The notes under the pieces are model-generated. The model was given only the letters and a program-made list of their open reading frames with translations. It ran no database searches and had not been told where the DNA came from. A stretch of DNA of 28,806 bases from a virus. Its lineage: Duplodnaviria > Heunggongvirae > Uroviricota > Caudoviricetes. The DNA lies in the IMG/VR virus record IMGVR_UViG_2529292922_000011; one strand, given 5' to 3'. The translations under genes and the position numbers were made by a program. Shown in pieces: positions 8,131-10,715 of this stretch. How positions within the stretch are numbered: the first letter of the stretch is position 1; every line of letters starts with the position of its first letter.

Positions 8131-9495
8131 ATGTGGAACCTTTTACGGCGAACCCGAAAAAACCAGAAATCAGGACGTGACGTAAGAGAGGTGGGCTGGA
8201 CCAGCCTGTTTCAGGCGGTGGCTGAGCCCTTTTCCGGCGCCTGGCAGCAGGGCGTGAAAGCCGATCCTGAAGCCGTCCTCTCCTTTCATGCGGTGTTTGC
8301 ATGTATTTCGCTGATATCCCAGGATATCGCCAAAATGCGGCTGCGTCTTATGCAGACGGATGCGCATGGGATACGCAGGGAAACGCGCCGGGGGGATATT
8401 GCCCGCCTCTGTCGTCGTCCCAACGCCCAGCAGAACCGCATCCAGTTTTTTGAACTGTGGCTGAACGCCAAACTGCGTCACGGCAATACGGTGGTGCTGA
8501 AAATCCGTAATGCCCGGGGGCAGATCAAAGAACTGCGTATTCTGGACTGGAGCCGGGTTGAACCTCTGGTGGCGGATGACGGCGAGGTGTTCTACCGCAT
8601 CACGCCGGACCGGAACTGCGGGATCACGGAGGCGGTGACGGTGCCTGCCCGGGAAGTGATCCACGACCGGTTTAACTGTTTTTTTCATCCGCTTATAGGA
8701 TTGCCGCCGGTGTATGCCGCCGGGCTGGCGGCCACGCAGGGGCATCATATTCAGGAAAATTCGACGTCTTTTTTCAGAAATGGTGGCAGGCCGTCCGGGG
8801 TGATTGAGATCCCCGGCAGTATTACGGAAGAAAATGCGAAAAAACTGAAGAGCAACTGGGACAGCGGGTATACAGGCGAAAATGCGGGGAAAACGGCCAT
8901 TCTGAGCAACGGGGCAAAATACAACCCCACGACGTTTTCACCTGTGGATGCGCAGACGGTGGAACAACTGAAGATGACCGCTGAAATTGTCTGTTCGGTG
9001 TTCCGTGTCCCGGCCTACAAGATTGGCGTGGGACAACCGCCTTCCAGTGACAACGTGGAGGCGCTGGAGCAGCAGTATTATTCCCAGTGCCTGCAGACGC
9101 TGATTGAGTCCATTGAACTGTTACTGGATGAGGCGCTGGAAACGGGGGAAAACGAGAGTACAGAATTTGATGTCACCACGCTGCTGAGAATGGACAGTGA
9201 GCGGCGCATGAAAACGCTGGGGGATGCGGTGAAAAATACGCTTCTCACGCCCAATGAGGCCCGTAAACGGGAGAACCTGCCGCCCCTGGCCGGCGGTGAT
9301 GCACTGTATCTTCAGCAGCAGAACTACAGTCTGGAGGCGCTGTCCCGTCGTGATGCCCGTGAGGATCCGTTCTCGTCTGCCGGGAAAACAGTTTCATCAC
9401 AGCTGCCTGACGGCGCATCTGACGGTAATAAGGCAATCAGTGAAACAGAGCATGATGCGGTGAAAGCGATGTTCAGGGGGATACTGAGAAAATGA
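8131..9495 (+). CDS. Portal protein (HK97 family)
   Basis: Portal-type motifs (AVFACISLISQDIAKMRL, HGNTVVLKI, FFRNGGRPSGVIEIPG, ENAGKTAILSNGAKY, VFRVPAYKIGV). Start is uncertain: ATG 8131 (GGAG RBS) chosen; GTG 8035 and GTG 8191 are in-frame alternatives. Confidence 0.8.
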   Translation: MWNLLRRTRKNQKSGRDVREVGWTSLFQAVAEPFSGAWQQGVKADPEAVLSFHAVFACISLISQDIAKMRLRLMQTDAHGIRRETRRGDIARLCRRPNAQQNRIQFFELWLNAKLRHGNTVVLKIRNARGQIKELRILDWSRVEPLVADDGEVFYRITPDRNCGITEAVTVPAREVIHDRFNCFFHPLIGLPPVYAAGLAATQGHHIQENSTSFFRNGGRPSGVIEIPGSITEENAKKLKSNWDSGYTGENAGKTAILSNGAKYNPTTFSPVDAQTVEQLKMTAEIVCSVFRVPAYKIGVGQPPSSDNVEALEQQYYSQCLQTLIESIELLLDEALETGENESTEFDVTTLLRMDSERRMKTLGDAVKNTLLTPNEARKRENLPPLAGGDALYLQQQNYSLEALSRRDAREDPFSSAGKTVSSQLPDGASDGNKAISETEHDAVKAMFRGILRK

Positions 9496-10715
9496 CGGAA
9501 CGGGAACTGTCCATTATTCGTGCACTGGGAGAAGAATTCTCCACAGTGCTGGCGGATTTACAGCGCACATTTGAGGGGAAGATGGCCTCGCAGGCACAAG
9601 CGTTTGAAGAGAAACTGACTTCCCTGTCGGCGGTATTACAGAAGCATGTGACGGTGGATGAGGTGCGTCCGGTTCTGCAGGCGATGGTGGATGACGCTGT
9701 GGGGGCCATTCCGGTACCGCGTGATGGTCGTGATTATGATCCGGATGTACTGCAGCAGGCGGTGAATGATGCGGTCGCAAATATTCCGCAGCCGGCGGAC
9801 GGTAAAAGTCTCACCCCGGATGATGTGCGTCCGATGCTTGAACAGATGGTGAAGGAGGCTGTAAGCCATATCCCTGTTCCGCGTGATGGTCGTGACTACG
9901 ATCCGGAAGTACTGCAGAAGGCGGTGAATGATGCGGTCGCAAATATTCCGCAGCCGGCGGACGGTAAAAGTCTCACCCCGGATGATGTGCGTCCGATGCT
10001 TGAACAGATGGTGAAGGAGGCTGTAAGCCATATCCCTGTTCCGCGCGACGGTCGTGACTATGATCCCGATGTTCTGCAGAAGGCGGTGAATGATGCGGTC
10101 GCAAATATTCCGCAGCCGGCAGACGGTAAAAGTCTCACCCCGGATGATGTGCGTCCGATGCTTGAACAGATGGTGAAGGAGGCGGTAAGCCATATTCATG
10201 TTCCGCGTGATGGTCGTGACTACGATCCGGATGTTCTGCAGAAGGCGGTTCTGGATGCGGTGAGTGCCCTGCCGGCTCCGCAGGACGGGCGTGATGCCAC
10301 GGCTCTGGAAATACTCCCCGCCATTGACGATCAAAAATCCTTTCCCCGGGGCACGTATGCCACACACCAGGGCGGACTCTGGCGGGCGTATGAAAAAACG
10401 CACGGGATGCGGGGATGGGAATGCCTGGTTGACGGGGTGGCGGATATTGACGTCAGCATGACGGGTGAGCGGTTGTTCTCTGTGGTGGTCCGGCAGAGCA
10501 GTGGCCAGCGTACGGAAAAAACATTTTCCCTGCCGGTGATGCTCTACCGCGGTGTGTTCAGAGCCGGTGAAACCTACCACCCCGGCGATACGGTGACGTG
10601 GGGGGGCTCGCTGTGGCACTGCAACAGTATGACCGAAGATAAACCCGGAGAAGCTCATTCATCAGCCTGGACCCTGGCTGCAAAACGTGGGCGGGATGCA
10701 GGAGGCGGAAAATGA
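9492..10715 (+). CDS. Repeat-containing head-module protein with possible C-terminal carbohydrate-binding-like motifs (function unknown)
   Basis: 407 aa; N-terminal coiled coil; 3.5 tandem 54-aa repeats (VRPMLEQMVKEAVSHIPVPRDGRDYDPDVLQKAVNDAVANIPQPADGKSLTPDD); C-terminal aromatic/Gly motifs (YHPGDTVTWGGSLWHCNS...KPGEAHSSAW). Start overlaps the portal stop (ATGA). Confidence 0.7.
   Translation: MTERELSIIRALGEEFSTVLADLQRTFEGKMASQAQAFEEKLTSLSAVLQKHVTVDEVRPVLQAMVDDAVGAIPVPRDGRDYDPDVLQQAVNDAVANIPQPADGKSLTPDDVRPMLEQMVKEAVSHIPVPRDGRDYDPEVLQKAVNDAVANIPQPADGKSLTPDDVRPMLEQMVKEAVSHIPVPRDGRDYDPDVLQKAVNDAVANIPQPADGKSLTPDDVRPMLEQMVKEAVSHIHVPRDGRDYDPDVLQKAVLDAVSALPAPQDGRDATALEILPAIDDQKSFPRGTYATHQGGLWRAYEKTHGMRGWECLVDGVADIDVSMTGERLFSVVVRQSSGQRTEKTFSLPVMLYRGVFRAGETYHPGDTVTWGGSLWHCNSMTEDKPGEAHSSAWTLAAKRGRDAGGGK
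9663..10148 (+). repeat. Three tandem 162-bp coding repeats (a fourth, degenerate copy follows to about 10290)
   Basis: Unit boundaries at 9663, 9825, 9987, 10149, found by the recurring gtgcgtccg...ccggatgat blocks; units 2 and 3 are nearly identical at DNA level. Confidence 0.8.

Follow-up and report, generated by a model that had tools for sequence, protein, structure and literature searches.

The window analysed here, the whole 28,806-nucleotide (nt) stretch of viral DNA held as IMG/VR record IMGVR_UViG_2529292922_000011, raises the question of what is encoded between its portal gene and its head-tail connector gene. An open reading frame (ORF) of 407 amino acids (aa) with an ATG start lies at 9492..10715 on the plus strand, between an HK97-family portal ORF and a gp6-like connector, where an original prediction made from the sequence had placed it. 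Our data indicate that this ORF is a real, separate and conserved gene, translationally coupled to the portal gene upstream and to the connector gene downstream, and that its product may act at the portal vertex. The features that bear on this reading are listed below; structural features come from AlphaFold2 (AF2) models, and pN/pS denotes the ratio of nonsynonymous to synonymous polymorphism.

8131..9495, plus strand: HK97-family portal gene, 454 aa from the ATG at 8131 (the longest ORF begins at GTG 8035), ending in ...AMFRGILRK and a stop codon
9476..9480, plus strand: homopolymer of five G residues (G5), polymorphic in E. coli, 12 nt upstream of the start codon of the 407-aa ORF
9492..9495, plus strand: ATGA overlap of the portal and 407-aa genes (ATG 9492-9494, portal stop TGA 9493-9495), a translational-coupling junction
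9492..10715, plus strand: 407-aa portal-coupled accessory protein gene, PHROG families 1289, 8767 and 16748
9498..9641, plus strand: long N-terminal alpha-helix (residues 3-50), a putative docking or oligomerisation element, from AF2, conserved N-termini and pN/pS
9654..10265, plus strand: shaft of ~27-aa half-units, eight short helices and 12-aa linkers in AF2
9717..10249, plus strand: 162-bp (54-aa) tandem repeat, 3.3 copies by Tandem Repeats Finder, a substrate for copy-number change
10284..10712, plus strand: conserved all-beta C-terminal domain (residues 265-407), from AF2 and phrog_16748
10560..10628, plus strand: CBM5/12-like motif (residues 357-379, YHPGDTVTWGGSLWHCNS...)
10712..11038, plus strand: gp6-like head-tail connector gene (Pfam Phage_connect_1, 1.5e-7)

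The portal junction and its two alleles

The coupled arrangement is repeated at the downstream end of the gene, where the connector ATG (10712) overlaps the TGA of the 407-aa gene (10713-10715) in a second ATGA junction. At the upstream end, direct comparison revealed a single 1-bp difference between the window, which carries G5 at 9476-9480, and E. coli 4/1-1 and phages 2851 and 783R2, which carry six G residues (G6); the same difference separates the window from the related locus L001. The G5 allele ends the portal at ...AMFRGILRK and starts the 407-aa ORF at the overlapping ATGA, giving two genes, while the G6 allele opens a read-through frame (...AMFRGDTEKMTEREL...) and gives one 861-aa fusion of portal and extension. 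Fused proteins of 807 aa (861 minus 54) exist too. In complete E. coli genomes, searches with 40-mers specific to the junction (all of their 28-nt seeds span the G-run) located 913 G5 sites spread over 487 genomes and 1369 G6 sites over 782, the G6 fusion making up approximately 60% of the matching E. coli copies. Phage 2851 has the fused form, and phages BP-4795 and 1717 have the split form; these last two phages and PPompW_699 carry G5, each with its own flanking single-nucleotide differences, and Sanger-era phage records are among the G5 carriers. The exact haplotype of the window, with G5, is present in four independent assemblies. Homopolymer sequencing error was considered, the first accessions having resembled long-read NCTC assemblies, and was rejected because of this spread of G5 over complete genomes, Sanger-era records with distinct flanking differences and independent assemblies. 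Programmed ribosomal frameshifting at the G-run was likewise rejected, as no slippery site is conserved in the relatives.

The junction was then compared outside E. coli, in approximately 20 distant IMG/VR loci (64-70% identity) and in approximately 38 genome loci from Enterobacterales, Pseudomonas, Betaproteobacteria and Alphaproteobacteria, the latter collected by a profile search built from 8 sequences. The portal gene (product of ~455 aa) and the 407-aa-type gene are separate ORFs in all informative loci of both sets; the genome loci include Kosakonia, Enterobacter, Citrobacter, Morganella, Pseudomonas, Pseudoduganella, Marinobacter, Rhizobium and Mesorhizobium, among other genera. Gene order, namely TerL, protease-capsid fusion, portal, accessory gene, connector, is fixed in these ~58 non-E. 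coli loci, and the ATGA overlap of portal and accessory gene is present in 11 of the 11 distant loci inspected. The portal terminus in the distant loci, ...AM(L/I)RG(L/F)L(T/A)K followed by a stop codon, is conserved and matches the G5 reading of the window, and the start of the accessory protein, M(T/N)ERELS(I/L)I.xLGEEF, is conserved in Enterobacterales. Most distant loci read AGAGGATT... at the junction and have no G-run there, and none is fused; the G-run is confined to the lineage of E. coli. Because G5 is common, all informative non-E. coli loci are split, and the portal terminus and the ATGA are conserved in them, sequence comparison shows the two-gene state to be ancestral and G6 to be a fusion derived from it within the E. 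coli lineage. One distant relative (L081, ~4890-4918) has a CGGGGG run of its own where its portal terminus encodes the corresponding Arg-Gly pair (atgctacgggggttactt), and this position may be prone to independent G-run formation.

The RefSeq treatment of the locus takes the other view, that a 1-bp deletion has broken an 861-aa portal gene and left the 407-aa ORF as its C-terminal half, either as a frameshift pseudogene or through a homopolymer sequencing error. RefSeq does annotate 861-aa portals and flags the G5 copies as 'frameshifted', some depositors have written 'portal protein (pseudogene)', and one homopolymer G is all that separates the window from the intact 861-aa allele. This explanation was dropped after the distant loci showed the split, the terminus and the ATGA to be conserved, and it is now scarcely credible: the G5 reading gives the portal C-terminus and the ATGA start that are kept in every distant relative inspected, all informative non-E. 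coli loci are split, G5 is widespread in complete genomes and recurs in the independent assemblies of the window haplotype, and HK97-family portals are only ~400-430 aa long, as judged from the PDB matches. The broken-portal explanation is largely refuted, and the original prediction of a distinct gene between portal and connector describes the ancestral arrangement, fitting the data better than the current RefSeq annotation does.

Tests of portal identity gave the same division. In the fused 861-aa homolog, the portal profiles (Pfam Phage_portal, 6e-81; TIGR01537, 2e-104) are confined to residues 45-388, and the PDB portals 9lbn, 8cez and 6tba align to residues 43-420 only, with 8cez (the HK97 portal) as the closest well-known relative. 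The 407-aa ORF has no Phage_portal (PF04860) match in Pfam and none to TIGR01537 in NCBIfam. It does belong to phrog_1289 (E 5.6e-195), phrog_8767 (E 1.2e-169) and, over residues 265-407, phrog_16748 (E 3.9e-97). The PHROGs alignment places it over positions 455-859 of a "portal protein" profile that is 859 positions long, and RefSeq and phage records show one portal of ~860 aa whose end is identical to the end of the ORF. Standalone homologs without a portal domain match the same three PHROG profiles, and PHROG 1289 is the standalone family, whose "portal protein" label looks like a transfer of annotation from fused forms.

A portal fusion of a different kind was seen in one sequence, P0239 (1237 aa), in which a divergent portal is joined to the extension by a junction unrelated to the G6 fusion, and which has ~22 tandem units of ~28 aa. 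This is either a second independent fusion or an assembly artefact. At least one fusion of the gene to the portal C-terminus has occurred, and a second is probable. The P0239 unit reads LPxPEPLPDIxxMVxxAVxxI, and its repeat count is far above that of the E. coli members.

Repeat shaft and C-terminal domain

Over 9717-10249, Tandem Repeats Finder reported 3.3 copies of a 162-bp period, free of indels, with 95% matches and a score of 968. In register, units 1 and 2 are identical at 158 of 162 nt and unit 3 matches either of them at 152 of 162, while a fourth, partial unit decays; the near-identity of the repeats had been recognised from the sequence, and the earlier count of 3.5 copies is fair at the protein level. 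Each 54-aa unit consists of two related ~27-aa half-units (a Pro/Gly/Asp linker and an amphipathic helix), and an extra half-unit lies upstream, at residues ~52-73. Close relatives measure 245, 299, 353, 407, 461 or 569 aa, that is 407 plus or minus multiples of 54 (the BP-4795 protein is 461 aa), and the proposal that length varies by repeat gain and loss holds for these copies. The repeat shaft is recombinogenic. Short-read assemblies can collapse such repeats, and the case of L131 (GCA_002466345.1, 5362-6261), where an identical 454-aa portal is followed by a 299-aa version with two units fewer, reflects either a recent repeat contraction or a collapse of the 162-bp repeat in a short-read assembly. 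As regards collagen-like (G-X-Y)n sequence, the 407-aa protein contains only isolated P-x-D-G-(R/K)-D motifs, and its homologs have 2-5 G-x-y triplets before and after the C-terminal domain.

The full-length AF2 model consists of a helix at residues 3-50 (pLDDT >90), eight helices of 13-17 residues separated by 12-residue Pro/Gly/Asp linkers, and a terminal beta-domain, with low confidence for the shaft and linkers. A separate AF2 model of the C-terminal 153 residues, based on a 49-sequence alignment, gave a ten-strand all-beta domain with a mean pLDDT of 92. The paired aromatic/Gly motifs that had been pointed out in this region, YATHQGGLWRAY and YHPGDTVTWGGSLWHCNS...KPGEAHSSAW, are present in the 407-aa translation, and the aromatic residues (Trp or Tyr) at positions 108, 116, 121 and 139 of the model vary little or not at all among the aligned sequences. 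The second motif is a Pfam match to CBM_5_12 at residues 357-379 (E 3.3e-4, 21.0 bits, with the whole ORF as query). With the C-terminal 143 aa as query the match improved to E 1.5e-5 and 25.3 bits, still below the gathering threshold of 26.2 bits; the homologs score 21.9-24.8 bits, consistently just under it.

The predicted C-terminal domain has the characteristic small beta-sheet fold of CBM5/12 (PF02839). A profile search of PDB sequences retrieved the Anabaena injection-system protein All3316 (E 6e-4) and the carbohydrate-binding modules (CBMs) of NodB deacetylase and the chitinase 2rts (E ~2e-3), and all of these matches run through the GD.VTW.GS.W motif. Its neighbours in BFVD are phage proteins that pair collagen repeats with ChiC/CBM5-12 domains. 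The suggestion that the C-terminus resembles small sugar- or chitin-binding modules is well supported by the sub-threshold match, the fold and these neighbours, and in the models the C-terminus appears to carry a CBM5/12-like glycan-binding module. Compared with the modules of Serratia ChiB, Streptomyces ChiC (ChBD 2d49) and Pyrococcus (ChBD 2rts), which are examples of the family to which the 407-aa protein scores just under threshold, the module here is embedded in a larger ten-strand domain of ~140 aa with a second aromatic/Gly motif (GGLWR...GWEC), and in place of the two aromatic residues common in chitinases it contains only one Trp.

The sequence is constrained in both the fused and the split backgrounds. 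In codon alignments, pN/pS was 0.16 (fused) and 0.22 (split) for the C-terminal domain, and 0.39 (fused) and 0.36 (split) for the N-terminal helix. Between bacterial classes, from Kosakonia to Rhizobium, the C-terminal domain is 47-66% identical, compared with 44-74% for the portal, 42-82% for the capsid and 33-51% for the connector.

Candidate roles at the portal vertex

We tentatively favour, as a possible role, a low-copy minor head protein located on the crown (interior) side of the portal, with its conserved C-terminal domain binding a conserved ligand, perhaps peptidoglycan after ejection. A low-copy protein of the portal vertex is suggested by the ATGA coupling to two 12-copy proteins and by the recurrent fusion to the portal C-terminus. 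The crown side is preferred because portal C-termini face the capsid interior (crown) in all solved portals, and because fusion to the portal C-terminus by G insertion is common and under purifying selection. A conserved ligand is suggested by a C-terminal domain that is as conserved as the portal and capsid across classes. Under this proposal, the protein would be made by termination-reinitiation coupling to the portal through the ATGA overlap, with the connector gene coupled to it in turn, and its N-terminal helix of ~50 aa would dock on or beside the C-terminal tail of the portal. The shaft of helices and Pro/Gly/Asp linkers would change length in 54-aa steps through recombination or slippage between the near-identical 162-bp units. 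The ligand would most plausibly be a GlcNAc-containing glycan, such as peptidoglycan reached after release at DNA ejection, or else a virion component. We infer the portal docking, the low, portal-like copy number, the interior location and the ligand from these lines of evidence.

Known portal-associated proteins offer partial parallels. SPP1 gp7 and Mu gpF (Phage_Mu_F) are portal-adjacent, portal-bound minor head proteins. Like the 407-aa gene, theirs are located directly downstream of the portal gene, and they would share with the 407-aa protein a low copy number and portal association, both of which are inferred for the latter, as well as a modular, variable C-terminal 'cargo'. MuF proteins with variable C-terminal domains have been described (PMC5576092). 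The likeness is positional and functional only: Phage_Mu_F (PF04233) gave no match to the 407-aa ORF at E ≤ 1 in Pfam, and the fold here, of helix-linker repeats and a CBM-like domain, is different. The P22 portal has a long helical C-terminal extension (the barrel) inside the capsid, and in the G6 allele the portal runs straight into the ~50-aa helix, which would place 12 extra helices at the crown. Unlike the P22 barrel, the ancestral helix is a separate polypeptide followed by ~350 more residues that include the beta-domain, and no sequence similarity to the barrel was found.

Several points weigh against an interior portal-vertex protein. The helix, the repeat shaft, the CBM-like knob and the collagen-like G-x-D-G-x-D stretches of homologs resemble the plan of an external fibre, as do the neighbours in BFVD and the PDB, which are tail fibres and collagen-repeat phage proteins. 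The CBM5/12 Pfam score falls just below threshold, and carbohydrate binding is a prediction. The purifying-selection signal is confounded by prophage recombination, and many E. coli prophage copies are defective, that of the window included, whose head-closure gene is interrupted by an insertion sequence (IS). Evidence that the fused form is viable depends on phage 2851, which we take to be infectious, as we presume the split-form phage BP-4795 to be. P0239 is one sequence and may be an assembly artefact, and literature searches found no proteomics or structure that places the protein in virions.

The resemblance to fibres is the basis of the strongest rival, an external neck or head fibre ('whisker') whose N-terminal helix anchors outside, at the portal/connector collar, with the shaft pointing outward and the CBM5/12-like knob binding a surface or environmental glycan, and which would aid adsorption or retention. 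The fibre-like plan and the structural neighbours are in its favour, and phi29 gp8.5 (a helix-turn-helix repeat shaft), the T4 fibritin whiskers and the collagen-repeat/ChiC_BD phage proteins share the N-terminal anchor, repeat shaft and C-terminal knob; however, no homology to gp8.5 or fibritin was detected, and frequent, constrained fusion to a portal C-terminus, which is interior in solved portals, would be unexpected for an external fibre. The C-terminal domain is also conserved like core structural proteins across E. coli, Pseudomonas and Rhizobium hosts, whereas receptor-binding tips normally diverge. This rival, which amounts to the adhesin idea of the original prediction limited to the portal vertex, is rather unlikely, and the adhesin idea itself agrees poorly with a domain that differs in its cross-class identity from host-specific receptor binders. 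An assembly-only factor, that is a portal chaperone or scaffold-like linker that recruits the portal to the procapsid, is removed by the prohead protease and is absent from mature virions, would account for the helical, elongated and scaffold-like N-terminal two-thirds, for the tight coupling of the gene to the portal gene, and for a module that has no separate scaffold gene, the capsid protein being a Peptidase_S78 and Phage_capsid fusion. A strongly conserved, well-folded CBM-like beta-domain would be unexpected in a transient scaffold, and a repeat number of 0 to ~22 is hard to square with the setting of dimensions, which together make this role improbable.

The other role in the original prediction, capsid decoration, would require a decoration or cement protein with a glycan-binding tip that is present in high copy at hexon or penton sites over the whole capsid. 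CBM-like or Ig-like tips do occur on known decoration proteins (Hoc, pb10), and the C-terminus is CBM5/12-like, but the gene is coupled downstream of a 12-copy protein and not to the capsid gene, recurrent portal fusion would put only 12 copies at one vertex, and no similarity to known decoration families was found in Pfam, PHROGs or the PDB. Decoration is accordingly very improbable, and the coupling to portal and connector together with the portal fusion suggests a low-copy portal-vertex protein in its place. A more ambitious extension of the interior portal-vertex reading, unlikely as it stands, is that the family as a whole consists of portal-tethered internal virion proteins of proteobacterial siphophages (>5000 clusters at 50% identity), with the helix stacked on the portal crown as a detachable P22-style barrel, and the variable-length shaft and peptidoglycan-binding CBM5/12-like domain released through the tail with the DNA. 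If this were true, the G5/G6 polymorphism of E. coli Stx and lambdoid phages would be a ready-made experiment with free and covalently tethered forms. In any case, the G5/G6 and repeat-number alleles are natural variants with which a role at the portal vertex can be tested.

Family breadth, annotation and neighbouring genes

An exhaustive HMMER search of 1.84 billion cluster representatives returned 5609 relatives at E ≤ 1e-3, 630 of them at E ≤ 1e-30. The best 149 representatives of the 5609 are nearly all standalone proteins of 214-860 aa, in which the N-terminus varies, the number of repeat units ranges from 0 to ~12, and a C-terminal domain of ~140 aa is conserved; P0152, P0165 and P0184 owe their greater length to extra repeats, with no portal domain in any of the three. 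The gene family is present in 1246 of 5426 complete E. coli genomes (approximately a quarter), often in several copies each, and in Stx1, Stx2a and Stx2c siphophages. Its known distribution among deposited phages is nearly limited to Stx and lambdoid phages of E. coli, with the addition of Salmonella FSL SP-016 and an EBPR siphovirus. The 407-aa ORF matches no NCBIfam model, the sub-threshold CBM_5_12 match is the only one in Pfam, and a PDB sequence search with the extension found nothing beyond the CBM-like motif. PF28083 is listed for some fused homologs, and no Pfam family is recorded for the 407-aa product on its own. No paper that addresses the protein was found in the literature, and no curated family or paper gives its function. 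The family is thus uncharacterised, common as it is. The view that it is not a standard member of HK97-type head modules is correct for canonical HK97, from which it is absent, but not for this widespread module subtype, of which it is a fixed member: a conserved fifth element with an expandable shaft and a conserved glycan-binding-like domain.

RefSeq/PGAP annotates G5 copies as a single 'phage portal protein' pseudogene, 'frameshifted', as in NZ_CP042903.1 at 1174-3920, because the reference protein is the derived 861-aa fusion. The annotation misleads in three ways, in that the standalone protein goes under the name "portal protein", the fusion, a derived form, serves as the reference, and the ancestral two-gene state is recorded as a pseudogene. 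This mis-flagging probably affects hundreds of genomes and the prophage-intactness calls made from them, and its correction alters the judgement of prophage intactness in enterohaemorrhagic E. coli (EHEC) genomes. The ancestral split has possibly been scored as a portal defect in prophage-integrity surveys; several 'Portal' functions were scored D in the Sakai prophage paper, where the split was not confirmed as the reason. The record of phage vB_EcoS_phi330 (PV189401.1) is uninformative; in its head-tail region every one of the portal, extension, gp10-like and major tail genes is broken into short ORFs, which suggests that the record carries uncorrected indel errors.

The window carries a late region of a lambdoid siphophage, with TerS, TerL, the protease-capsid gene, a small ORF, the portal gene, the 407-aa ORF and the connector gene followed by tail genes. 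The genes upstream of those already listed are as follows.

3698-4261: TerS
4258-5919: TerL
5982-7919: protease-capsid fusion, 645 aa, with Peptidase_S78 (residues 48-152) and an HK97-fold Phage_capsid domain (386-635) by Pfam

The head module has no separate scaffold or protease gene, and every related locus, from Gamma- to Alphaproteobacteria, keeps the protease-capsid fusion. A small conserved ORF of 73 aa (7964-8185) follows the capsid gene and precedes the portal gene; it overlaps the portal start by ~55 nt and has no Pfam family; its counterparts are a 'hypothetical protein' at 4472-4693 of L001 and ORF57 in BP-4795.

Downstream, an IS50/Tn5-like IS4-family element occupies 11376-12944 of the window (the element itself ~11385-12935). 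Its transposase ORF, at 11397-12686 on the minus strand, has Tnp_DNA_bind, DDE_Tnp_1 and Tn5 dimerisation domains. The ends of the element read CTGTCTCTTGATCAGATCT... and ...GTGTATAAGAGACAG, and it is flanked by a 9-bp target duplication, GTCGGCTGG. It sits 23 nt before the end of the head-closure gene and changes the product from 116 to 136 aa, and the prophage copy in the window is probably defective because of this insertion. Assembly GCA_900448265.1 carries the same IS insertion.

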